Assembly (NCBI GenBank): GCA_031414595.1
Contig: JANNVX010000109.1
Location: 1 to 64,000, forward strand
Reading direction: 5' to 3'
Length of the DNA stretch: 64,000 bases
Origin: Deinococcales bacterium
GTDB lineage: Bacteria; Deinococcota; Deinococci; Deinococcales; JAAFIG01
The position numbers and the translations under genes are program-made. The notes beneath the pieces were generated by a model, which had not been told where the DNA came from, ran no database searches, and saw only the letters and a list, made by a program, of their open reading frames with translations. Below are positions 31,101 through 43,959 of this stretch, in pieces. The stretch's first letter is position 1. Each line of letters opens with the position of its first letter.

Positions 31101-31136
31101 AATGTATTCATCATTTTGATTGTGTAGACTTTGCGT

Positions 31137-31774
31137 ATGGCATACAGCAATTTTACACTACAAGAAGTGCTGAAAAAATTTGACCTTAAACTCGAGGAAA
31201 GCCGTAATTTGTTTGCAGATGTCACACCTCGAGTACCCACGGCACTTTTGACTGCATGGCTCGAGCAAAAAATTCCTTTGGCATTGACACTTTCTACCGA
31301 AAAAGCCCGTAGTGAATTTATTATTGCCCCAATTCTCGCGAGGTTCGTGAATTGTTGGGTAAACGATTTTCGTTGTTTTCGGGAATAGATTTTACGGTTG
31401 ACTCGAGTCTAGGCTTAAATGGCGAGTGTGATTTTTTGTTTTCTAAGTCGCCAGAGCAATTGGTTTTACTTGCACCTGTGGTTAGTGTGGTTGAGGCGAT
31501 TCCGCCCGAAGGTGCGTCTTGGAATCAAGAAGCTAAAAATGAGAGTTTTAGGAACGGTTTAGCTCAGGCTTGCGCCGAAATGCTGGCGGCTCGGGTTTTT
31601 AATGAACGCGAAGAGCATCCACTCGAGCGGGTTTTTGGAGCAGTGACCACAGGTGATGATTGGCAATTTTTAATCCTCGAGGGAAATACATTATTTGTGG
31701 GTAGTAAACGCTACCACCTAGAAGAACTCCCACAAATTCTAGGAATTTTTTGCCATATGCTCGAGACAGCTTGA
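31137..31774 (+). pseudogene. Frameshifted conserved hypothetical protein (MAYSNFTL... family, PD-(D/E)xK-like) with a 36-nt insertion
   Basis: ORFs 31131-31388 and 31352-31774 join as EKARSEFIIAPIL / EVRELLGKRFSLFSG...GECDF...VEAK...GAVTTGDDWQF if one base is restored near 31339. Confidence 0.7.
31496..31531 (+). mobile_element. 36-nt small hairpin element inserted in frame
   Basis: gcgattccgcccgaaggtgcgtcttggaatcaagaa; same GCGA...GCCCG..AGGTGC...TCAAGAA frame as the copies at 29505 and 33545. Confidence 0.7.
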
Positions 31775-31970: not shown

Positions 31971-32363
31971 GTGGATTACACAACAGAGGTGACAGGTGCG
32001 TTGTACATTGGTCTGTTTGCGTTGATTGGGGCGGGAATTGTTTATATCACGCTCGAGATTGCAAAGTTGGCGTTTTTTTATGCAGGGTCGCGGCGATTCG
32101 GCGGCAATAAAGCTAAGGATTCGGTTTACGAATGTGGTATGGAAACCATTGGCGATACCAATGTGCAATTCAATTTGAATTACTACTTGTTTGCCATGCT
32201 TTTTGTGATTTTTGATGTCGAAGCTGCACTGCTCTATCCGTGGGCTGTGGCATTCGATACTCTTGGGGTCGGTGGTTTACTTGCCGTGCTGTCTTTCTTG
32301 GTGATTTTGTTCCTTGGGTTTTTATACGCACTTCGTAAAGGAGCATTAAAATGGGTTTACTAG
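31971..32363 (+). CDS. nuoA: NADH-quinone oxidoreductase subunit A
   Basis: [30 protein letters not shown]. Confidence 0.95.
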
Positions 32364-32902
32364 GCACGCAAGCTCGTCCGGATAACGTTATTCTTGGTTC
32401 GCTTGATGATTTAATTAACCTCTCTCGTTCGAGAAGTTTATGGCCCTTAACTTTTGGTATTGCTTGCTGTGCCATCGAAATGATGAACTCGAGCGCCACC
32501 CGTTACGACATGGATCGTTTTGGCGTTTTTTACCGCAATACGCCGCGTCAAGCCGATGTGATGATTGTCTCGGGGACGGTTAATAAAAAAATGGGTAAGG
32601 TCGTGCGTCAACTTTGGGAGCAAATGTCCGAGCCTAAATGGGTCATCAGCATGGGCGCATGTGCCAACCAAGGTGGACCATTTCGCCAAGGCTATAGCGT
32701 GGTTGAAGGGGTAGACAAAATTATCCCCGTAGATATTTATGTTCCCGGTTGCCCGCCGCGTCCCGAAGCCCTGATGCAAGCCCTGCTTTTGCTGCGAGAC
32801 AAAATCGCTGACCCTGCGGCGCGTTATGTGCCGGGGACAATGATGGATGCTGATTTTGACCCACTCGCTGAACCCGGTCATGATGGACGGGTGTTGTTGT
32901 GA
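32351..32902 (+). CDS. nuoB: NADH-quinone oxidoreductase subunit B
   Basis: [30 protein letters not shown]. Confidence 0.97.
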
Positions 32903-33873
32903 GCCAACCCTCATCCGCTCCAATTGCTCCAGCTAAAATCTGGCATATCCCACTGCTCGAGTCCGACAAGATAGAAAATCTGATAGCTGGCTTAAAAGCT
33001 CGAGCCGAAACACTGTTTGACACGATTCAAATTACTGTTGCTCTCGAGGATTACCGCACCCTATGTGAACGCCTCTTCAAAGCTGGTTTTGATTTTCCGC
33101 AAAGCATGAGCGGTACAGATTTTGAATGGGGTTTAGGGGTTGCGTTGCAACTGCAACAACTCGAGTCCAAACGCAAAGTCACGGTGCGGACGTACTGCAC
33201 CTATCAAAATGCCCATGTCCCAACTGTTTCTGACCTTTGGGGAGGCGTAGATTGGCACGAACGCGAAGCCTATGACCTTGTGGGCATTATTTTTGATGGT
33301 CATGAAGACTCGATAAATGGTCATCCACGCCGAATTCTGCTCGAGGATCATTGGACGATTCACCCACTGCAAAAGCGCTATAACACCCGTGGCTACTTAA
33401 TCCATGGCTGGACAGAAAAACCATTCCCAACTCCAGCCCCGTGGGAAGAAGGTTTCCAATCCTTCTCTAGCGCTCCTGTGGCTGTTGCTCACGTTGCCCC
33501 ACCCGCGCCGAAAATTGTTCCTGTCGTTGCCGTAGGGGCGAGGCTTCTTGACCCTAAAGCAGCACCTGACGGGCTTGGGTCGCACGCCTCGCCCGACCCC
33601 GCCGAAGCCCCCGCTCCTAAAGCCGAAGCTGCCCCAGTCGTCTCGAGTGACCCACCAAAGAAAGTCGCTAAAAAATGGGTTCCAAAAGGCGAAGCCGCGC
33701 CAATTGTTACCGAAGCCGCCCCTGAAGCTGCCTCGAGTGAACCCGTGCCTGTTGTCTCGAGTGAACCTGCGCCCGTCGTTTCGAGTCCAGAAGTTGTTGC
33801 CGTCTCGAGTCCAGAAGCCGCCCCAGAAGAAAAACCCCGCAATCCTAAAATTAAGCGTTGGGAACCCAGATAA
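32899..33873 (+). CDS. nuoC: NADH-quinone oxidoreductase subunit C with long Pro/Ala/Glu-rich tail
   Basis: [26 protein letters not shown]...RRILL...HPL. Confidence 0.93.
33532..33594 (+). repeat. REP inside nuoC, interrupted by a 39-nt small hairpin element (33545-33583)
   Basis: gtaggggcgaggc[ttcttgaccctaaagcagcacctgacgggcttgggtcgc]acgcctcgccc. Confidence 0.85.
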
Positions 33874-33885
33874 AGGAGGGATGAT

Positions 33886-35067
33886 ATGACCGCAGTCGCA
33901 GATAAACCGAATAATGCTCGTAATACGTCCGGTTCTGTCATGAACCCGACGACAGTTGAACGGGTCGCGGGTCGCTCGGACGAGATGCTTCTCAACCTTG
34001 GACCACAACACCCAGCCACCCACGGTGTACTTCGAGTTCTTATGGGTGTGGATGGCGAACGTGTCACCAAGGCAATTCCACACATTGGGTACTTGCATCG
34101 CAACCATGAAAAACTCGAGGAAGTGCGTACTTATCCGATGTGTATTCCCTATACCGACCGCATGGATTACGTGTCGGGAATGCAGAACGAATTGCCATTG
34201 TGTTTGGCGGTAGAGGAGATGCTAGGTATCGAAGTCCCAGAACGCGCCAAATATGTGCGAACGATTTTATTTGAACTAAGCCGTATTGCGAGTCACATGG
34301 TCTGGATTGGCACATACATGCTCGACCTTGGGGCAATTACTCCGTTTTTATATGCGTTTCGTGACCGCGAAATGATTCTCGACATCATCGAAGAAACGGC
34401 TGGGGCGCGGTTATTACCAAATTATTTCACCTATGGCGGTGTGCGCCGTGACCATCATCCGCGCATGATGCAGGACATTCTCGAGTTCCTGACGTGGTTT
34501 GAGCGTAAGCTCCCAGAGTACGAAGCCCTGACCATTGATGCACCAGTCTTCCAAGCCCGTACCGTTGGTGTTGGTGTGCTAGACCCGCAATTGGCGCTCA
34601 ATCATGGTGTGACCGGACCAAACCTGCGTGGTAGCGGTATCGGCTGGGATTTACGCCGCGACGACCCATATGATGCCTACCCACATTTGGATTTCGAGGT
34701 CTGTGTGGAGTACGGCTGCGATGCCTACTCAAGAAGCCGCGCTCGTTTTCGTGAATTCCGCGAGAGCATTAAAATTATTCGTCAAGCTGTTAATCAGTGT
34801 CCAAAAGGCGGCGCGTACTTACCAAAACTGCCGCGTCTTAAACCCGTGGCTGGTATGGAACGTTACCGCGCTGTGGAAATCTCGAGGGGACATCTTGGGG
34901 TGCATATTGTGGCCGACGGTTCAGAAAAACCGTGGCGTGTTAAGCACCGCAGCCCGAGTTTCTGCACCTTGCAAGCCTTAGCGGACATGGCTGTGGGTTC
35001 TAAATTCTCGGATGCAATCGCTATTCTTGGCAGCATTGACATTGTTCTAGGGGAGATTGACCGATGA
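33886..35067 (+). CDS. nuoD: NADH-quinone oxidoreductase subunit D
   Basis: NLGPQHPATHGVLR, GYLHR, DRMDY, GSIDIVLGEIDR. Confidence 0.97.
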   Translation: MTAVADKPNNARNTSGSVMNPTTVERVAGRSDEMLLNLGPQHPATHGVLRVLMGVDGERVTKAIPHIGYLHRNHEKLEEVRTYPMCIPYTDRMDYVSGMQNELPLCLAVEEMLGIEVPERAKYVRTILFELSRIASHMVWIGTYMLDLGAITPFLYAFRDREMILDIIEETAGARLLPNYFTYGGVRRDHHPRMMQDILEFLTWFERKLPEYEALTIDAPVFQARTVGVGVLDPQLALNHGVTGPNLRGSGIGWDLRRDDPYDAYPHLDFEVCVEYGCDAYSRSRARFREFRESIKIIRQAVNQCPKGGAYLPKLPRLKPVAGMERYRAVEISRGHLGVHIVADGSEKPWRVKHRSPSFCTLQALADMAVGSKFSDAIAILGSIDIVLGEIDR

Positions 35068-36689
35068 GTATTTATGAAAACAAAGAAGCTCGGTTGCCGC
35101 TCGAGCGTGTCTCTGTGCCTACCGATAAGCATTACAGAATGCGAATGAAGCATCACGGGTTACTGAACGCCAATCCGCGTAAATCGGGTTTGTTGGCGGC
35201 GATTATTGGTTATGCGCTCTTGTTTGGCGCTGCCCACGGTGTGTTAATTCTGGCATTTCAAGTCATTCCAGCACTTTTGACCAACGGCTTACCGTTCCCA
35301 TGGACTGGTTTTGGTCTCGAGAAGAACAGTTTTTGGTTTAACGTCATTTACGGGCTGCTTGCCCCAGTCTTGGCGTTTTTATTTATCGCTGTGGTGGCAT
35401 TGATTAACATCCTCATGCTGCGTAAGTACCTCGCTAAAGTTCAGAACCGTTATGGACCTCTGCACAACGGACCCTCGGGCAGTTTACAAACGGTTTACGA
35501 CGCGCTCAAACTGGTTTCTAAAGAAGATTACACCCCCAAAATGGTTGAGGAAACAATTTTCACCCTTGCCCCAGTCCTCGTTTTTGTTTCTGCCTTTTTA
35601 CTGATGGCAGTGATACCATTTGCCCCCGGTTGGGTCTTTGCCAATGTCGAAGCTGGCGCAATTTTTATTATTGCGGCGGGTACGCTCGGCGGGTACGGTG
35701 TGCTGCTGGCGGGTTGGAGCATGAACAACAAGTACGGTTTGATGGGTGGCTTACGAGCCGCAGCGCAGCTTGTCAGTTACGAAGTGCCGCTTTCGATTAG
35801 CTTGCTTTCGGTCTGTGTCTACGCGGGCAGCATGAACCTTAGTAAAATTGTCGAAGCCCAACAAAGCCTGTGGTTTGCGATTCCGCTCTTTATTCCTTTC
35901 GTAATTTATTTAATCGCAGGTCTTGCCGAACTTAAAATGACTCCGTTTGACCTCCCAGAAGCCGAATCTGAACTTGTGGCTGGTTTTAACACCGAGTACG
36001 GCGGAATGCGTTTCGGATTTTTCTTTGTGGCAGAATTTGCCGAACTTTACCTTCTTCCAGCGTTGATGGCGGTGTTCTTTTTAGGTGGTTGGAATGCTCC
36101 TTCTATTCCAGCACCAACAGGGACTTTTCTTAACACTTGGTCTGGAGGTGCGCCTACCCTAGAACTTGTACTAAAGGCAAATCCAATGGCGGGTGACTTA
36201 AATGCTGATTATATTGTCAATCAAGAAGATTTGACTGCTTTCTCGGCAGCAGAGGTAGATGGCAAAAAGTTACCCAAGTGGCGATTGGATATTACTCGAG
36301 ATGGTTCAGTTGATTCCAAAGATAGTGAATTTATTTCACGCGAAATTGCCACCAATCCCAAGCCAACCTTATGGCAGCTACTATTTGGACCCGGAAGTTT
36401 AATTCTCAATAGTATTTATGCTCTGATTTTTCTAGTTAAAGGCGCAGCAGGAGTCTATTTCTACATGTGGATTCGTGCCACACTGCCCCGTTTCCGTGAT
36501 GACCAGTTAATGGAACTCTGCTGGAAGGGTTTAATCCCACTTTCTTTAGTTGGATTGTTGCTGGCAGCCGTCTCGAGACTGATTCCAGCCGTTGGGATTA
36601 CTATTTCGATATTGGTGGGCGGAACATTCATTGTGATGATTGCACGCGGGGCATTCTTCCCCACCTCGAGTAAGCAGGTGAAAGCATGA
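35064..36689 (+). CDS. nuoH: NADH-quinone oxidoreductase subunit H with N-terminal extension and internal dockerin-like insert
   Basis: QNRYGP, DALKLVSKE, GGLRAAAQLVSYE, PFDLPEAESELVAGFNTEY, WIRATLPRFRDDQLM. Confidence 0.95.
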   Translation: MSIYENKEARLPLERVSVPTDKHYRMRMKHHGLLNANPRKSGLLAAIIGYALLFGAAHGVLILAFQVIPALLTNGLPFPWTGFGLEKNSFWFNVIYGLLAPVLAFLFIAVVALINILMLRKYLAKVQNRYGPLHNGPSGSLQTVYDALKLVSKEDYTPKMVEETIFTLAPVLVFVSAFLLMAVIPFAPGWVFANVEAGAIFIIAAGTLGGYGVLLAGWSMNNKYGLMGGLRAAAQLVSYEVPLSISLLSVCVYAGSMNLSKIVEAQQSLWFAIPLFIPFVIYLIAGLAELKMTPFDLPEAESELVAGFNTEYGGMRFGFFFVAEFAELYLLPALMAVFFLGGWNAPSIPAPTGTFLNTWSGGAPTLELVLKANPMAGDLNADYIVNQEDLTAFSAAEVDGKKLPKWRLDITRDGSVDSKDSEFISREIATNPKPTLWQLLFGPGSLILNSIYALIFLVKGAAGVYFYMWIRATLPRFRDDQLMELCWKGLIPLSLVGLLLAAVSRLIPAVGITISILVGGTFIVMIARGAFFPTSSKQVKA

Positions 36690-37741
36690 GTCTCTTAAAA
36701 GATATTTGGAATGCGGTATCTGGTGTTGGTAAGGGCATGGAAAAGGTCTACGATGAACAATTCGATCCGATTTTCACCGAAATGTACCCATTTGACATGC
36801 CAAAACTGCCGCCAACCAGTGTCCAGAGTTTGGCACTGATTAAAAACGAGGATGGCTCAGACAGGTGCGTGTCTTGCTTAGCCTGTGAAAAAGTCTGCCC
36901 AAGCCAAGTGATTACCATTGAGCGCAAGAAAAACCCTGCTGGTAAAGGCTTTGTTCTCGAGCGTTTCGACATTGATTTGGTCAACTGCATGTACTGCGCG
37001 GCTTGTGTCGAATCCTGCCCAGCCTCGGCAATTGTCACGATTCAAGACTTTGAATTGTCTACCCCGAATCTGCAAACCCTAAAAGCCGATAAGGACTTCC
37101 TCGATTTCCAAGGCATTCGCGCTCAGCAGTGGTACAGCCCGAAAATTGGGGTCGAGTACCGCGAAAATGTCACCTCGAGTAATGTCCACGGAGCAATTGT
37201 TAAAGCCCCATTGATTGACCAACCCGGCGGCGCTGCTGAATATGAAAAATTAAAAGCGGCTGGCACAGAAATCCCTGTCAATAATGCCCGTCGTCCGGCT
37301 AACGCCATGTCTGAGCTTTCCATTCTCGAGTACAAACAATTAAAGCATGAGCCAATCAGTGCCACAGCCGCCAAACTCGAGTCAAAACCAGTTTCAGTCA
37401 ATATCCCTGTCAACATCCCCGCCCCAGTCCTCGAGACTGTGGCTGTGTTATCTGCATCTGTCGCCTCATCTGCCCCAAAATCCAAGAAAATCAAACGTTG
37501 GGGAGAACCTGCTTCCGAAGAATCCACCCTACCCGCCGTTGCCCCCGAACCCGTAGGGGCGAGGCATGCCTCGCCCGACCCCGCCGAAGCCCCCCTGCCG
37601 AAAGCCGAAGCTGTTGCCGTTGCCCCAGTCTCGAGTCCAGAACCAGCCGTCTCGAGTGCCGAAGTCCCAGTCTCGAGTGCCGAACCAGCCGAAGAAAAAC
37701 CAAAAAATCCCAAAATTAAGCGTTGGGAGCCTAAATCATGA
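36686..37741 (+). CDS. nuoI: NADH-quinone oxidoreductase subunit I with long C-terminal tail
   Basis: Two 4Fe-4S motifs CVSCLACEKVCP and CMYCAACVESCP; position between nuoH and nuoJ. Confidence 0.93.
   Translation: MSLLKDIWNAVSGVGKGMEKVYDEQFDPIFTEMYPFDMPKLPPTSVQSLALIKNEDGSDRCVSCLACEKVCPSQVITIERKKNPAGKGFVLERFDIDLVNCMYCAACVESCPASAIVTIQDFELSTPNLQTLKADKDFLDFQGIRAQQWYSPKIGVEYRENVTSSNVHGAIVKAPLIDQPGGAAEYEKLKAAGTEIPVNNARRPANAMSELSILEYKQLKHEPISATAAKLESKPVSVNIPVNIPAPVLETVAVLSASVASSAPKSKKIKRWGEPASEESTLPAVAPEPVGARHASPDPAEAPLPKAEAVAVAPVSSPEPAVSSAEVPVSSAEPAEEKPKNPKIKRWEPKS
37553..37576 (+). repeat. Intact REP inside nuoI (translated as VGARHASP)
   Basis: gtaggggcgaggcatgcctcgccc. Confidence 0.85.
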
Positions 37742-38358
37742 CCGAAGTCAATACTGTTTTCTTTTATTTGGTTGCCCTTGGCATTTTATCCACGGCAATC
37801 TACGCGGTGGCGAGTCCTAAGCTACTAAACGCGGCTGTTTCCCTTGCCTTGTCATTTTTTGCCGTTGGTGGTTTGTATTTCATGCTCGGGAACGGTTTCT
37901 TGGGCATGTTGCAAATTTTAATTAACGCTGGTGCAATTCCAATCGTCACGGTTTTTATTATCATGATGACCCAATCGCGGCGTATCCGCTTGCGTTCTAA
38001 TTTGAATGTCGCCGCAGCCCTTCTAGCAATTGTGGTCTTGGCAGGTAGCCTCTGGTCATTTTGGAATAGATACCAAGGTTCGGCAGCCACCCAAGGTAAG
38101 CAGATAACGTCAACGCCAACTTCTGAACTGGGTGTGAAGTTGCTCAGTGCCGATGGTACATTACTCGCCTTTGAACTTGCTTCGGTGCTGCTGCTTCTAG
38201 CCATGGTTGGTGCAATTGTCCTGACCAAGCGTGACGGCGAAACGATTAAAGGTGATGTCGGTGTGTTGTCCGATGTCGCTTTACCTGTGACGGGTGGAGA
38301 GCTTTCTCGTCCAGCCGCAACCATCGAACGAGCCTCAAAACAGGAGGTGGTTTCGTGA
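37738..38358 (+). CDS. nuoJ: NADH-quinone oxidoreductase subunit J
   Basis: LQILINAGAI, AFELASVLLLLAMVGAIVL. Confidence 0.92.
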   Translation: MTEVNTVFFYLVALGILSTAIYAVASPKLLNAAVSLALSFFAVGGLYFMLGNGFLGMLQILINAGAIPIVTVFIIMMTQSRRIRLRSNLNVAAALLAIVVLAGSLWSFWNRYQGSAATQGKQITSTPTSELGVKLLSADGTLLAFELASVLLLLAMVGAIVLTKRDGETIKGDVGVLSDVALPVTGGELSRPAATIERASKQEVVS

Positions 38359-38711
38359 ATCTCGAGTCAATTCTTGCCCCAATTCGTTCCTTTGCTAATT
38401 CTGGTATTTCAGTCAATCACTTTATTGCCCTTGCGATGCTGCTGTTCTTGGTTGGTTTATATGGTGTTTTAACCCGTCGCAATATCGTGGCAATTTTAAT
38501 GAGTGTTGAAATTATGCTCAACGCCGCCATGCTGGTGTTTGTAGCGGCGGCTGCTTACAGCGGTGATGCCACCAAAACGGGTCCACTATTTGCGCTTTTT
38601 ATCGTTGCCATTGCTGCCGCCGAGGTTGCTGTGGGTCTCGCCATTTTTATCAATGTCTTTAGAAGTAAGGGTGGCGTAACCACCGAAGACTTGATGGAAA
38701 TGAAGAATTAA
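38355..38711 (+). CDS. nuoK: NADH-quinone oxidoreductase subunit K
   Basis: RRNIVAILMSVEIMLNA, IAAAEVAVGLA. Confidence 0.95.
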   Translation: MNLESILAPIRSFANSGISVNHFIALAMLLFLVGLYGVLTRRNIVAILMSVEIMLNAAMLVFVAAAAYSGDATKTGPLFALFIVAIAAAEVAVGLAIFINVFRSKGGVTTEDLMEMKN

Positions 38712-38722
38712 AGGAGGGGAAA

Positions 38723-40924
38723 ATGTTTATTGATTACGCTTTGTTGATTCCCCTGCTTCCCGCGTTCGGCTGGCTGATCATTTCCTTGTTCAGCAAATCG
38801 CTGGGCGGCAAGGGTAGTGCGTGGTTGGCAACAACCATGATTGGCTTGAGTGCAGTGATTGCCATTGGTCTGTTCGCCGATTCGTTCTCGAGTGCGCCAG
38901 TCTGGAAAGCCGATACGCTGGGTAAAATTTATAAACTCGAGAAGGAAATTAAGGTTCTCGAGAAGGCAGAAAAAGCTGGGAAGCCAGAAACCGCCACAAT
39001 TGAACCGGGTTCTGAAGTCCCTAAAACTGAGGGCGAACACACCGCCAGCCCTGAGCTTTTAGCACTCGAGGAGAAGTTAAGTGAGTACAAAACCGAAGCC
39101 CTCGAGTCTCGAGCCGTTGGCGGTTTTCCGTTTACCAGAGACTGGACTTGGTTAGCCATTAAAGGCGAAGCAGGTTTACCATTTGGTTTATATGTAGACC
39201 AGTTAGCTGCAATTATGCTTTTAATGGTGACAATTGTTTGTTTTTTAATTCATTTGTTCAGCATTGGCTACATGGCGCACGAAGAACGCTATCCGACCTT
39301 TTTTAGTTATATCAATTTGTTTGCCGCCGCCATGCTTGCGATGGTGCTGGCGAAGAACTTATTCCATGTCTTGTTGTTCTGGGAAATCATGGGCTTAATG
39401 TCGTACCTTTTGATTGGCTTTTTCTATAAGAAGAAAAGCGCTCAACAAGCTCAGAAGAAGGCTTTTTTAACCGTGCGTATCGGCGACTTGGCGTTTATGG
39501 CTGGGTTGTTCTGGTTGTACAGTGTCTTTGGGACACTGGATATTCCAACCCTTCTTGCCACATCTCACAGCGACCTCGAGACCAAACTTGGTGGGGCAGC
39601 TTTTGGCATTGGCTTACTGCTCTTTATTGCTGCGGTTGGTAAATCGGCTCAGTTCCCGCTTCATGTCTGGTTGCCAGATGCAATGGAAGGTCCTACACCA
39701 GTAAGCGCCATGATTCACGCCGCGACAATGGTGGCGGCGGGTGTGTACTTGGTGGCTCGAGTTTACCCAATTATGGATGTTGGTGGAGTCCTACCAATTA
39801 TTGCATGGCTTGGGGGCTTTACGGCGCTGTTTGCAGCCAGTCTTGCGCCAGCCCAAGCCGATGCCAAGAAGATTATGGCGTTTAGTACGCTTTCACAATT
39901 GGGCTTGATGTTCATGGGCTTAGGTCTGTTCGGGTACGCAGCAGCGCTGTTTCACTTGCTGACTCACGCGTTTTTCAAAGCCCTCTTGTTCCTTGGTTCG
40001 GGTAGCATGATTCATGGTGCAGGTACGCAAGACATCTTTGAAATGGATAATTTATCCAAGTACCAAAAATACACTTGGGCGACGGTTCTGATTGGTTCAC
40101 TTAGCTTAATGGGTTTCCCACTCACGGCTGGTTTCTGGTCTAAAGACGAAATTCTGCATGTGGCTCAGAGTGCAAACCCAGCCCTGTACATCGTTGGTTG
40201 TGCAGTGGCGATTTTGACCGCGTTTTACACTACACGGATGTTTATTATTGCCTTCCACAAGCCCAAACAAGTTTCCCCGTGGGGCTTAGCCGCTTGGAAC
40301 AACGAGGGCGAACCAAGCCTAAACATGACCCAAGCCGAAGTTGAAGAACAAAAAAAGCACGAACATGGTCATGGTCATAGCGATCATCCGCACGAATCTG
40401 GTTCTGAAATGCTCATCCCATTGGTTAGCCTTGCAACCCTTGCGACGGTCATGGGTTTTGTTGGCAGTCCATTCGCTAATTTCTGGCTGCAACGCTTTGT
40501 CTATCACGGTGATGTGCCGCATGTCGCGCCGCTCGAGTCACTTTGGGCTGGGTTTATCATCAGTGCGATTTTGGTGGTGATTGGCGCAGGAGCATCTTAT
40601 GCCCTGTACTGGAATTCTGATGTGACCAAGGCTCGAGCGCCCGAATGGTTGACTCGAGTGTTGCAACGCCGTTATTACATTGATGATTACTTCTACGCGG
40701 GTCCTGCTAAAATTTCTAACGATATTCAATGGCTGTTTGCTTGGTTTGATAAGAATGTCGTGGACAAAATCGTTGACTTCGTTGGTGGGCTGGTGGTGGT
40801 GCTTGGCGATGCCTCGAGACGGATTCAAACAGGGGCTTTAGGTTGGTACGCAGGTCTGACTGTAATTGGTGGCTTGGCACTGATTCTTGCCTTTGCTGTT
40901 GCCTTTGCTGGAGGTGGCAAATGA
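38723..40924 (+). CDS. nuoL: NADH-quinone oxidoreductase subunit L
   Basis: WEIMGLMSYLLIGF, GKSAQFPLHVWLPDAMEGPTPVSAMIHAATMV, HAFFKALLFL. Confidence 0.97.
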   Translation: MFIDYALLIPLLPAFGWLIISLFSKSLGGKGSAWLATTMIGLSAVIAIGLFADSFSSAPVWKADTLGKIYKLEKEIKVLEKAEKAGKPETATIEPGSEVPKTEGEHTASPELLALEEKLSEYKTEALESRAVGGFPFTRDWTWLAIKGEAGLPFGLYVDQLAAIMLLMVTIVCFLIHLFSIGYMAHEERYPTFFSYINLFAAAMLAMVLAKNLFHVLLFWEIMGLMSYLLIGFFYKKKSAQQAQKKAFLTVRIGDLAFMAGLFWLYSVFGTLDIPTLLATSHSDLETKLGGAAFGIGLLLFIAAVGKSAQFPLHVWLPDAMEGPTPVSAMIHAATMVAAGVYLVARVYPIMDVGGVLPIIAWLGGFTALFAASLAPAQADAKKIMAFSTLSQLGLMFMGLGLFGYAAALFHLLTHAFFKALLFLGSGSMIHGAGTQDIFEMDNLSKYQKYTWATVLIGSLSLMGFPLTAGFWSKDEILHVAQSANPALYIVGCAVAILTAFYTTRMFIIAFHKPKQVSPWGLAAWNNEGEPSLNMTQAEVEEQKKHEHGHGHSDHPHESGSEMLIPLVSLATLATVMGFVGSPFANFWLQRFVYHGDVPHVAPLESLWAGFIISAILVVIGAGASYALYWNSDVTKARAPEWLTRVLQRRYYIDDYFYAGPAKISNDIQWLFAWFDKNVVDKIVDFVGGLVVVLGDASRRIQTGALGWYAGLTVIGGLALILAFAVAFAGGGK

Positions 40925-42456
40925 TTACGGCTTTAATTCTGATTCCGATTCTGGCGGCGATTCTGGCGGCGGTCTCGAGTACCGCCATTGCAAAACGTGT
41001 GGCAGTGGCTGCAAGTTTAATCACCACAATTGTCAGTGCGATCATGTACTTTTCGTATAACACAAGCGGCGGACAATTGGCGTTTGTTGAAAAAGTGCCT
41101 TGGATTCCTCAAGCTGGGATTGGCTACTTTGTTGGTTTAGACGGACTTTCCTTGCCATTTGTGTTTTTAACCGCACTGCTGACCTTGGTTTCGGTGCTGG
41201 CTTCTTGGGACGAAGAAAAAAAGAGTTTCTATGCGCTTTTTCTGGTCATGCAAGCTGGTGTGACAGGTGTTTTTGCCTCGCTTGACTTAATACTGTACTT
41301 CTTGTTCTGGGAAGTGGTCTTAATCCCGATGTTCTTTATTATTCTGGTTTGGGGTTACGAGAATCGCCGTTATGCGGGTATTAAATTTGTGATTTATAGC
41401 CTGACTGGTTCGGTGTTGATGCTGATTTCAATGCTGGCATTAGCCTTTGGTGTAGCCAGTGCCACAGGTAAACCACTTTCCTTTGACTATGAAGTGCTGC
41501 TTGCGAACCTCGAGACGATTAAATCCCTGCCGGGGATTGCCCTGATTTTCTGGGGCTTTATGATTGCCTTTTTGATTAAACTTCCCGCTTTTCCATTCCA
41601 TACATGGTTGCCTCATGCCCACACTGAAGCCCCAACGGGCGGTTCGATTATGCTGGCGGGAGTGCTACTCAAAATGGGTGGGTACGGCATTTTGCGTTTT
41701 AACCTTGGTTTAATGCCAGAGCAAATGCAGCAATTCCAGACGATTTTGGCAATTCTAGCCACGATTGGCGTAATTTACGGGGCGTATTGTGCAATGGCAC
41801 AAAAAGACTTAAAGCGGATGGTCGCGTACTCGAGTGTCAATCACATGGGTTATGTGCTGCTTGGGATTGTGAGCATGACCGCTATGGGCATTCACGGTGC
41901 GGTTTACCAGATGGTGGCGCACGGGATTATCACTGGCTTAATGTTTATGATGGTTGGCTTTTTAAGTCACCGCACCCACACAAGGGAAATCGCCAAGATG
42001 ACGGGTATGTACAATGCCATGCCAGTCTTGGGTGCAATTATGTGGATGGCATTTTTAGGCGGGCTTGGCTTACCGGGCATGGCTGGGTTTATTGGCGAGT
42101 ACACAGCGTTGTCTGGGGCGATTCAAAATCCTGCCACGGCAATTTATGGGTACATCAGTTTAATCGGCATTATTGTCACGGCTGGATTTATTCTCTATGC
42201 CGTGCAGCGTGTGTTGCTTGGGCGTAACCCTGCGGCAACCGACGACCATCACGGTCACGATGTACCCTCGAGCCACGGCGAACAAAAAGGGCATCACGAC
42301 CTCTCACCGCTTGAGATTGCGGCGGCTGCGCCTTTGGTGATTCTTGGGGTGGTACTTGGTTTGTACCCTGCGCTGCTCACGCCTTGGATTGATGGCAGCA
42401 CACAATTACTGCTCGAGACCGCCAAACGAGTCATGGCACTGGGAGGTGGACAATGA
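40921..42456 (+). CDS. nuoM: NADH-quinone oxidoreductase subunit M
   Basis: GLDGLS, FWEVVLIPM, FPFHTWLPHAHTEAPT, AYSSVNHMG; ATG overlaps the nuoL stop. Confidence 0.96.
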   Translation: MITALILIPILAAILAAVSSTAIAKRVAVAASLITTIVSAIMYFSYNTSGGQLAFVEKVPWIPQAGIGYFVGLDGLSLPFVFLTALLTLVSVLASWDEEKKSFYALFLVMQAGVTGVFASLDLILYFLFWEVVLIPMFFIILVWGYENRRYAGIKFVIYSLTGSVLMLISMLALAFGVASATGKPLSFDYEVLLANLETIKSLPGIALIFWGFMIAFLIKLPAFPFHTWLPHAHTEAPTGGSIMLAGVLLKMGGYGILRFNLGLMPEQMQQFQTILAILATIGVIYGAYCAMAQKDLKRMVAYSSVNHMGYVLLGIVSMTAMGIHGAVYQMVAHGIITGLMFMMVGFLSHRTHTREIAKMTGMYNAMPVLGAIMWMAFLGGLGLPGMAGFIGEYTALSGAIQNPATAIYGYISLIGIIVTAGFILYAVQRVLLGRNPAATDDHHGHDVPSSHGEQKGHHDLSPLEIAAAAPLVILGVVLGLYPALLTPWIDGSTQLLLETAKRVMALGGGQ

Positions 42457-43919
42457 TTTTTGTGGCATTGGTGTTCTTGATGATTTCGGCAATGGCAATG
42501 TTTATTGCAGCAACTTTTAAGGGCGCAGAGGAAAAACATGCGGGGCAGATTTTTGGTGGTATCAGCTTAGTGGTGTACGGCATCACGGCGTTGTTGGCAG
42601 CGATGGCTTGGAATGACACAACCGTACATTACGGGGTGATTAAGTCTGGTGGCTTGGCGACCCTTGGCACAATTATCATGTGCGGTATCGGGGCTTTAAC
42701 GGTCGGTGGTGTAATGGCTAACCCCGAAAAGTACAAGGCTGGTGTCGGTGAATTCTTTGGTTTTATTGCCTTTGTGGTTTTTGGTGGGGCAATTATGGTC
42801 AGCACCAATCATCTACTCGTGCTGCTGCTTGGTATTGAACTCTCGAGTTATGCGACTTATATTCTAGTGGGATATTACCGCGATGACCGCTTCAGCAATG
42901 AGGCTGCCAGCAAATACTTTTTATTAGGTGCAGTCGCCAGTGGCTTTCTGATTTTTGGCATGAGCCTTGTCTATGCCAGTGTGGTTTTTGTCAATGGCTC
43001 ACTCAGTTATGCTGACATTGGCAATACTTTGGCGGGTCTGGTCGGGCAGACGGTTGGTATTCCAGCCCTGATTTACCCCGGTATCGCCATGCTGCTGGTT
43101 GGCTTTGGCTTCAAACTCGCGCTTGCACCGTTTCACTCTTGGACTCCAGATGCCTACCAAGGCGCTCCGACGATGGTGGCGGCAATTCTTAGCGTTGGAC
43201 CTAAAGCGGCGGTTGTGATTGCGCTCTCGAGCTTACTGACCACAGCTTTTCCGGTGCCAGAACTCTCGAGTGCTTGGAAGAACGCCATTGCTGTCCTAGC
43301 GATTTTATCCATGACCATCGGCAACTTAATGGCATTACAACAAACCAACCTCAAGCGTCTGCTTGGCTTCTCGAGTATCGCCCAATTGGGTTATGTGGTG
43401 ATTGGTGTGGCAGTTGGCAGTTTAGACGGCACAAGTGCGGTTATTTTGTATATGGTTGGTTATGCTGTCACCAATATCGGTGCATTTATGATTATTGCTA
43501 CGCTGCGCGATTCTGGGGTCGGCGAAAACATCGAAGACATTGCGGGCTTGGTTAAACGCAATTCATTTGCTGCCGTGATGCTGGCTGGTTTCTTTATGGG
43601 TTTAGCTGGTGTACCTGTGCTGGCTGGTTTCCTCGGCAAGTTACTGCTTTTTAAGAGCGCTGTGGATGTTGGGATGGTGGCGCTTGCGGTGATTGCTGTC
43701 CTGAATGTTGTGCCAAGTTACTACTATTACTTTAGGGTGATTATCAGTGCAATTTTTAGTGAACCCAAAGACTCGAGAACCTTTGAACTGAATCCAACTG
43801 CCACGACGACGCTTGCGATAGCACTTGGGGCGGTGGTGTTGCTGGGCGTTTTTCCAACGCCATTACTAAACATCATCAACGAAGCCGTTAAAGTCCTACC
43901 ACTTTTTGCCGCTCGCTAA
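42453..43919 (+). CDS. nuoN: NADH-quinone oxidoreductase subunit N
   Basis: EAASKYFLLG, FKLALAPFHSWTPDAYQGAP, KRLLGFSSIAQLGY. Confidence 0.96.
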   Translation: MIFVALVFLMISAMAMFIAATFKGAEEKHAGQIFGGISLVVYGITALLAAMAWNDTTVHYGVIKSGGLATLGTIIMCGIGALTVGGVMANPEKYKAGVGEFFGFIAFVVFGGAIMVSTNHLLVLLLGIELSSYATYILVGYYRDDRFSNEAASKYFLLGAVASGFLIFGMSLVYASVVFVNGSLSYADIGNTLAGLVGQTVGIPALIYPGIAMLLVGFGFKLALAPFHSWTPDAYQGAPTMVAAILSVGPKAAVVIALSSLLTTAFPVPELSSAWKNAIAVLAILSMTIGNLMALQQTNLKRLLGFSSIAQLGYVVIGVAVGSLDGTSAVILYMVGYAVTNIGAFMIIATLRDSGVGENIEDIAGLVKRNSFAAVMLAGFFMGLAGVPVLAGFLGKLLLFKSAVDVGMVALAVIAVLNVVPSYYYYFRVIISAIFSEPKDSRTFELNPTATTTLAIALGAVVLLGVFPTPLLNIINEAVKVLPLFAAR

Positions 43920-43927
43920 GTAACCAT

Positions 43928-43959
43928 AAAAACACCCGTCTCAAGACGGGTGTTTTTTT
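43928..43959. terminator. Bidirectional intrinsic terminator after the nuo operon
   Basis: aaaaacacccgtc-tcaa-gacgggtgttttttt. Confidence 0.9.

Follow-up and report, generated by a model that had tools for sequence, protein, structure and literature searches.

A second complex I operon without nuoEFG in a Deinococcales genome, and ferredoxin as its candidate electron donor

What feeds electrons into a complex I that is encoded without the module that oxidizes NADH? The question is raised by a stretch of DNA from a Deinococcales bacterium (64,000 nucleotides of contig JANNVX010000109.1, called here the window), in which 11 open reading frames (ORFs) located on one strand between positions 31971 and 43919 match protein-family profiles of NuoA, B, C, D, H, I, J, K, L, M and N. 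This operon turned out to be the second one for complex I in its genome, and we favor, with some reservation, the view that its product acts as a proton-pumping ferredoxin:menaquinone oxidoreductase, a view built on sequence comparison.

A unit that encodes NuoABCDHIJKLMN but not NuoEFG has the gene set of an 11-subunit complex I. As a preliminary description of the window had claimed, nuoD overlaps nuoH directly (by 4 nt: nuoD spans 33886-35067 and nuoH starts at 35064), thus leaving no space for nuoEFG between them, and the gene order A-B-C-D-H-I-J-K-L-M-N runs up to a terminator. The claim that the NADH-input module is absent also holds, as no nuoE, nuoF or nuoG gene was found in the window. 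When the genome (94% complete) was searched for nuoEFG or another nuo operon, a check proposed in the same description, a full nuoA-N operon was detected on contig C98 (C98:67030-93646), and it holds the only nuoE, nuoF and nuoG genes of the genome. Because these genes belong to a complete operon, they are not the orphan nuoEFG that the description had named as evidence against its proposal. Subunits of the window and C98 operons are 28-52% identical. Since a 14-subunit operon with its own nuoEFG is also present, the window operon represents an added enzyme and not a reduced version of the Thermus type. It has no nuoEFG of its own, as a 14-subunit NADH:quinone oxidoreductase would, and its NuoD lacks the long C-terminal loop of the Thermus/mitochondrial type (19 residues versus 43). 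The canonical C98 operon is broken up by many inserted genes, whose sequences resemble those of Uma2-type nucleases, restriction-modification systems and PIN toxins.

An alternative is that the window operon borrows the NuoEFG subunits of C98 and acts as a second NADH dehydrogenase. The three genes do exist in the genome, and in Syntrophobacter the formation of two isozymes from one nuoEFG set has been suggested (PMC4453560). The low identity between the subunits of both operons is, however, an argument against sharing. Furthermore, two genomes (G009, 91% complete, and G218, 94% complete) harbor the nuoD of the headless operon only, with no match to canonical nuoD, and G009 also lacks a nuoF match; the NADH enzyme may really have been lost there, or the assemblies may be incomplete. 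Lastly, the NuoD of the window is devoid of a segment of ~25 residues that is kept in 14-subunit enzymes and that presumably contacts NuoG. On balance, we consider NuoEFG sharing improbable.

A clue to the donor is provided by the citric acid cycle. No E1 component of 2-oxoglutarate dehydrogenase was detected in the source genome, either with a hidden Markov model or by tblastn with the E1 proteins of three relatives, while succinyl-CoA synthetase and succinate dehydrogenase (sdh) genes are kept. A single E1a/E1b/E2 dehydrogenase cluster is present, with one E2 subunit only. There is also one two-subunit 2-oxoacid:ferredoxin oxidoreductase (C12:23133-26005), which retains the residues equivalent to Lys49b and Leu123b of Sulfolobus StOFOR1. 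The partner of StOFOR1 is a 7Fe ferredoxin, and a Lys49b to Ile change abolishes its activity on 2-oxoglutarate (PMC5020499). The C12 enzyme is likely to replace the absent 2-oxoglutarate dehydrogenase in the cycle. The genome encodes, in addition, one ferredoxin with a net charge of -11 (C101:14405-14641), two menaquinone-pathway genes (PF02621) and a cbb3/Rieske/cytochrome b cluster.

The best structural match of the C12 oxidoreductase is PDB 6N2N, which we take to be an enzyme of the reductive cycle. Such a match would suit a window complex I that works mainly in reverse, using proton motive force and menaquinol to supply biosynthesis or reductive carboxylation with reduced ferredoxin. Enzymes of this class are reversible, and sdh adjoins the operon both in the source genome and in genome G170. 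Nevertheless, loss of E1 with retention of succinyl-CoA synthetase, sdh and a cbb3-type oxidase cluster fits oxidative flow, and electron transfer from menaquinol to ferredoxin requires a bigger span than NAD reduction. Besides, a strongly positive pocket in cyanobacterial NDH-1L has been tied to the acceptance of electrons from ferredoxin (PMC7021789). Reverse operation appears thus quite improbable.

The phylum-wide distribution of the operon was examined in 301 genomes. Operon-type NuoD was found in 31: the source genome, 8/9 genomes of family f1, 12/14 of f4 and 10/103 of f2 (including the unpublished G265), and none of the 112 genomes of f3 or the 62 of f5. Families f2 to f5 appear to be those of Truepera, Deinococcus, Marinithermus/Oceanithermus and Thermus, respectively. 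These counts supersede those of a NuoH search at E<=1e-95 (24/301), which undercounted genus g8. In a wider sample of f1, this NuoD is present in 15 of 18 genomes. Comparison of NuoD with 5.8 billion proteins yielded matches from 97% down to 60% identity, followed by a fall to 54% or less; labels of these next-best matches include Bacillota, Armatimonadota and Poribacteria. The source label of the clade proteins is Deinococcales, and one is labelled Oceanithermus. A NuoD phylogeny, also proposed in the preliminary description, showed a single Deinococcales clade with support 100, divided into f4, f1 and f2 groups. This was a quick search with SH-aLRT support only, made with 96 of 134 rows; the rows left out were two fragments, three with a long loop and roughly half of the outgroup. 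One early acquisition followed by losses would fit this history.

Presence of the operon coincides largely with absence of E1. No E1 match was found in 24 of the 301 genomes (four of them identified from tallies and not from a listing), and three others (G010, G033 and G291) gave a weak match only. Operon NuoD is present in 21 of these 27 genomes, compared with 10 of the 274 that have E1. The sole f4 genome with E1, G025, lacks the operon. In turn, a POR_N gene is found in 31/31 carriers.

Examination of the subunits revealed intact ligands for clusters N2, N6a and N6b, intact quinone-site His and Tyr residues, and conserved charged motifs in NuoK and in all three antiporter-like subunits (NuoL, NuoM and NuoN). 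The features of the locus are the following:

31971..32363, plus strand: nuoA (PF00507; NCBIfam NuoA).
32351..32902, plus strand: nuoB; Cys motifs that bind cluster N2 are present (TIGR01957 above cut-off; sequence).
32899..33873, plus strand: nuoC (PF00329, residues 45-166).
33454..33870, plus strand: Pro/Ala/Val/Ser-rich NuoC tail with an internal KKVAKKWVP, a terminal motif and a copy of the GTAGGGGCG repeat at 33532.
33886..35067, plus strand: nuoD, with the quinone-site His and Tyr kept and ~25 residues of 14-subunit NuoD absent.
34807..34863, plus strand: short, basic NuoD loop of net charge +3 (residues 308-326), located where Lys315/Lys321 of NdhH contact ferredoxin (PMC7021789).
35064..36689, plus strand: nuoH (PF00146; the fold matches NuoH/NdhA).
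35190..35279, plus strand: additional N-terminal membrane helix of NuoH, residues 43-72, clade-wide (hydropathy; model).
36198..36347, plus strand: 150-nt in-frame insert in nuoH with two EF-hand-like loops (dockerin-like), in this genome only (alignment; PF00404, E=0.0012, 19.4 bits, cut-off 22.9).
36686..37741, plus strand: nuoI, with two 4Fe-4S motifs (N6a and N6b).
36911..36955, plus strand: basic NuoI hairpin ERKKNPAGKG, equal in length to the ferredoxin-binding hairpin of NdhI (PMC6992706).
37262..37738, plus strand: low-complexity NuoI tail with two KIKRW motifs, in part a DNA duplicate of the NuoC tail.
37738..38358, plus strand: nuoJ (PF00499).
38355..38711, plus strand: nuoK, both conserved Glu motifs kept.
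38723..40924, plus strand: nuoL, with ~75 additional residues near the N-terminus (position 64 of TIGR01974 aligns to residue 141; motifs).
40921..42456, plus strand: nuoM, from its likely ATG start (TIGR01972; motifs).
42453..43919, plus strand: nuoN (TIGR01770; motifs).
43928..43957, no strand assigned: intrinsic terminator with an A-run and a T-run (folding).

The start of nuoM is most likely the ATG at 40921, which overlaps the nuoL stop, and not the TTG at 40843 chosen by the ORF lister.

The surface on which ferredoxin might dock was compared with that of cyanobacterial NDH-1, where ferredoxin contacts Lys86, Lys89 and Lys91 of NdhI and Lys315 and Lys321 of NdhH (PMC7021789, PMC6992706). 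Residues were mapped from alignment ranges and not from the NdhH and NdhI letters. The NuoD loop has 18-19 residues and a net charge of +2 to +6 in 56/56 rows of the clade, in contrast with 43 residues and -2 in canonical NuoD. In a C-terminal alignment, NuoD Lys314 aligns with NdhH Lys315, and Lys319 adjoins the position of Lys321. Residues 61-113 of NuoI match residues 63-115 of NdhI in length, and NuoI Lys87 aligns with NdhI Lys89; Lys or Arg is found at position 87 in 14/14 clade rows. Arg80, Lys81 and Lys82 keep the NuoI hairpin basic, while mitochondrial hairpins begin with acidic residues. Altogether, two of the five NDH-1 lysines map exactly, one maps within one residue and two are unmatched; both loops are basic and in register.

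What we observed directly is the gene content, the conservation of catalytic motifs, the basic loops and the co-distribution; the donor, the direction of electron flow and expression of the operon are inferred. The proposal of an alternative-donor proton pump, made in the preliminary description, thus gains support, with ferredoxin as the best candidate donor. Oxidation of 2-oxoglutarate by the C12 oxidoreductase would reduce the C101 ferredoxin, which would then dock at the basic NuoI/NuoD surface. Electrons would travel through three clusters (N6a, N6b and N2) to menaquinone, and protons would be pumped by NuoL, NuoM and NuoN and by the NuoH/A/J/K part. NADH would be left to the canonical C98 complex. 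A weak hint in the same direction is that a ferredoxin paralogue lies beside the operon in two genomes: in G016 it follows nuoN at a distance of 104 bp and shares its strand, and in G014 it precedes nuoA by 313 bp and is divergently oriented.

Several observations weigh against ferredoxin as the donor. One is that the pattern of E1 and operon amounts to two lineage events, one in family f1 and another in genera g8 and g15. Fisher's test gives p ~1e-19 for the association but ignores kinship, and we do not rely on it because kin are not independent. Exceptions exist in both directions: six E1-less genomes (G002, G192, G205, G212, G238 and G256; 82-96% complete) lack the operon, and ten f2 genomes hold both E1 and the operon. 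POR_N is found in 184 of the 301 genomes and ferredoxin in 40/41, so that neither discriminates carriers; indeed, Thermus-type genomes have both and no such operon. The ferredoxin paralogue is absent from the source genome; in G003 and G007 its neighbor is the canonical operon, and six further genomes have it at other places. Most outgroup NuoDs share the short loop, which is therefore not peculiar to the clade. As for NuoI, only one of the three NdhI lysines maps exactly, and Lys86 and Lys91 correspond to Pro84 and Phe89. Lastly, f1 genomes possess an alternative possible sink for ferredoxin electrons, a cytochrome b-ferredoxin/FlpD module, which in the source genome is part of an operon at C32:11262-19463 that encodes cbb3-like oxidase subunits, a Rieske protein, two cytochromes b, of which one carries a fused 2x4Fe-4S domain, and a protein of the FlpD/MvhD kind.

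The latter module leads to another explanation, namely that the operon provides a platform for one or more other low-potential donors (flavodoxin, a protein caught by the K-x-K-R-W tails of NuoC and NuoI described below, or several) and that ferredoxin is reoxidized elsewhere, for instance by the C32 module. Two flavodoxin genes are found in the genome, basic patches would fit any acidic carrier, and 11-subunit enzymes have been proposed to serve as platforms for several partners (PMC11238625). However, both flavodoxin genes lie amid iron/haem-uptake-like genes. FlpD is found in 8/9 f1 genomes but in 0/14 of f4 and 2/103 of f2, a distribution that departs from that of the operon and leads us to reject the module as a universal partner. 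Searches of the 94% complete genome yielded neither a NiFe hydrogenase nor an aldehyde:ferredoxin oxidoreductase, nor any gene of the FrhB/FpoF family. Nor did the neighborhoods of the operon in relatives reveal a partner gene travelling with it; the only neighbor conserved across families is a cell-wall amidase gene, nearby in 11/24 relatives and in all three families. This explanation is therefore possible but doubtful. F420H2, the other donor considered in the preliminary description besides ferredoxin, is not supported: searches for an F420 input subunit of the FrhB/FpoF family gave no PF04432 match in the genome, and Fpo models scored far under their cut-offs.

Returning to ferredoxin, the appendages of the subunits deserve attention. 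Their existence had been pointed out beforehand, and we confirmed them in NuoC, NuoH, NuoI and NuoL. Some are clade-wide. A membrane helix ahead of NuoH helix 1 was detected by hydropathy in 21/22 sequences (the remaining one could not be parsed) and is absent from the canonical NuoH of the genome; a structural model places it at residues 43-72, with a predicted local distance difference test score (pLDDT) of 62 overall and below 50 at the insert. Also clade-wide is a conserved NuoI extension, WYSPKxG...QPGG. Other appendages belong to family f1: long Pro/Ala/Glu/Ser tails that end in K-[IV]-K-R-W in 13/13 complete NuoC and 10/10 complete NuoI proteins, with a second, internal copy of K-x-K-R-W. 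No such tails were found in the f2 and f4 sequences examined; since f4 members lack them, the tails are not essential to core function. Among all ORFs of the genome, K-x-K-R-W occurs outside NuoC and NuoI in one short, spurious ORF only. The linkers vary freely and share duplicated DNA, and in some genomes they carry a helix-hairpin-helix-like module. The GTAGGGGCG REP-like repeat, with 224 copies in the genome (at 17739, 33532, 37553 and 50496 in the window), is read in frame as VGAR... within both tails. The NuoI tail gave no usable match in the ESM Atlas, and the model of NuoI has a mean pLDDT of 52, under 50 in the tail.

The tails may serve to capture the acidic ferredoxin. A broader scenario, which we offer as tentative, would be as follows: an ancient Deinococcales ferredoxin:menaquinone pump allowed two lineages to lose 2-oxoglutarate dehydrogenase and to respire through a ferredoxin-based cycle alongside the NADH-based one; NuoC and NuoI of f1 acquired four tethered arms, each with K-x-K-R-W, to catch ferredoxin, an integrated equivalent of the helper subunits of cyanobacteria; and a helix became fused to NuoH close to where quinone enters. 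Variation of the tails admits a less favorable interpretation, that the operon is a decaying or silent relic. The tails take up repeat elements and vary greatly, and in genus g31 the operon is scattered. Yet all 11 frames are open with their motifs intact, identity within f1 is 92-99% for NuoB and 82-99% for NuoD, and the clade has been retained in three families, all of which makes decay very hard to believe.

The 150-nt insert of nuoH lies in a variable loop, is found in the source genome and is absent from 12 other f1 NuoH sequences. It encodes two loops of calcium-binding type, with a PF00404 score under the cut-off. An assembly artefact is unlikely, as the insert lies in one contig and no differences were seen in two of four sequencing runs, possibly of the source samples. 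The only other dockerin-like loop pair of the genome belongs to a secreted-looking protein of 249 amino acids (C17:41359-42108), a possible source type for the insert. Additional oddities were noticed. In genus g27, NuoC (537-549 aa; L063:14111-15724 and L118:6994-8643) carries tandem helix-hairpin-helix-like modules in place of the basic tail. In genus g31 (G186, G188 and G211), the second nuoH is isolated, at a distance of 70 kb to 1.5 Mb from the matching nuoD. The source genome contains CTCGAG 23,235 times (5.2 per kb; ~1,000 expected), a highly iterated palindrome, and GGCGCC, TGCGCA and GTGCAC only 3-6 times, indicating strong site avoidance.

The surroundings of the operon were also inspected. 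Its GC content is similar to that of the rest of the window. Upstream of nuoA, two short ORFs (85 and 140 aa; 31131-31774) without a Pfam match look like the two halves of a frameshifted gene; other genes occupy this position in G003. Downstream, the hairpin and T-run at 43928-43957 (-20 kcal/mol, z -5.4, 0/200 shuffles equally stable) escaped a simple terminator scan and was found by folding with shuffles; it likely serves both nuoN and a convergent peptidyl-prolyl isomerase gene. Beyond the latter lies sdhCDAB, from 44775. The proximity to sdh stated in the preliminary description is thus correct, but the link is weak: sdh is downstream of the operon in 1 of the 17 relatives whose DNA covered nuoN, and sdh was rejected as a co-transcribed partner in the source genome because the terminator and the convergent gene intervene. 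In G165 and G226, nuoH and nuoI are separated by genes that are not shared and whose sequences resemble those of a methyltransferase, a HicB-like protein and a peptidase.

Beyond cyanobacteria and methanogens, the donor of the 11-subunit enzyme is an open question, stated as unresolved for haloarchaea (PMC8305020). Co-distribution with E1 loss suggests a concrete donor chain for an enzyme that coexists with a normal complex I and whose retention follows loss of the NADH-making step of the cycle; its hosts belong to the same order as Thermus, the structural model. If our proposal is true, energy would be recovered from a step of the citric acid cycle whose usual NADH-making enzyme the genome lacks. 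A search of openly readable papers, without supplements, brought up no account of a second complex I from Deinococcota; the literature covered likewise had nothing about the Deinococcales clade described here, about its tails or about a tie to E1 loss. Oceanithermus is a cultured, thermophilic genus. Since the clade includes an Oceanithermus-labelled protein, purification and cryo-electron microscopy look feasible.

Comparison with known systems puts these observations in perspective. Thermus thermophilus, a member of the same bacterial order, has a complex I (PDB 2FUG and related) of the type encoded by the C98 operon; the window operon belongs to a separate lineage. Enzymes of 11 subunits are common (11.9% of the genomes in one survey; PMC3144371), pairs of 11- and 14-subunit enzymes are known (PMC3362086), and a Kor-ferredoxin-headless Nuo route has been proposed (PMC8305020). 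Published 11-subunit enzymes have the same gene set and order, ABCDHIJKLMN, and no N-module; in Desulfitobacterium, pyruvate:ferredoxin oxidoreductase and ferredoxin have been proposed, without proof, as donor (PMC11238625). A published list of phyla with such enzymes does not include Deinococcus-Thermus. The NuoC extensions known in Bacillaceae are N-terminal, whereas the tails of f1 Deinococcales are C-terminal and are found on both NuoC and NuoI. The Deinococcales clade differs also in having its own extra NuoH helix and in tracking loss of 2-oxoglutarate dehydrogenase.

Cyanobacterial and chloroplast NDH-1 resemble the window operon in their headless core, in a basic NuoI hairpin of equal length and in a basic NuoD loop at ferredoxin-contact positions (PMC7021789, PMC6992706). 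However, the Deinococcales operon itself has no genes of the ndhL-V type, its ferredoxin is likely of the 7Fe and not of the 2Fe-2S type, its quinone would be menaquinone instead of plastoquinone, no photosystem is involved, and one NdhI lysine in three is matched exactly. Ignavibacterium album also carries one 11-gene operon and a full 14-gene set, distantly related to each other, with ferredoxin as the suggested donor, but it belongs to another phylum, and the excerpted text describes neither tails nor a link to E1 loss (PMC3362086). A metabolic parallel is found in haloarchaea, in which oxidative decarboxylation by KorAB/PorAB reduces ferredoxin and an EFG-less Nuo is the suspected, unproven reoxidant (PMC8305020). 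Haloarchaea lack a 14-subunit partner, while both types coexist in Deinococcales; related genomes offer therefore a natural comparison with and without the headless enzyme.

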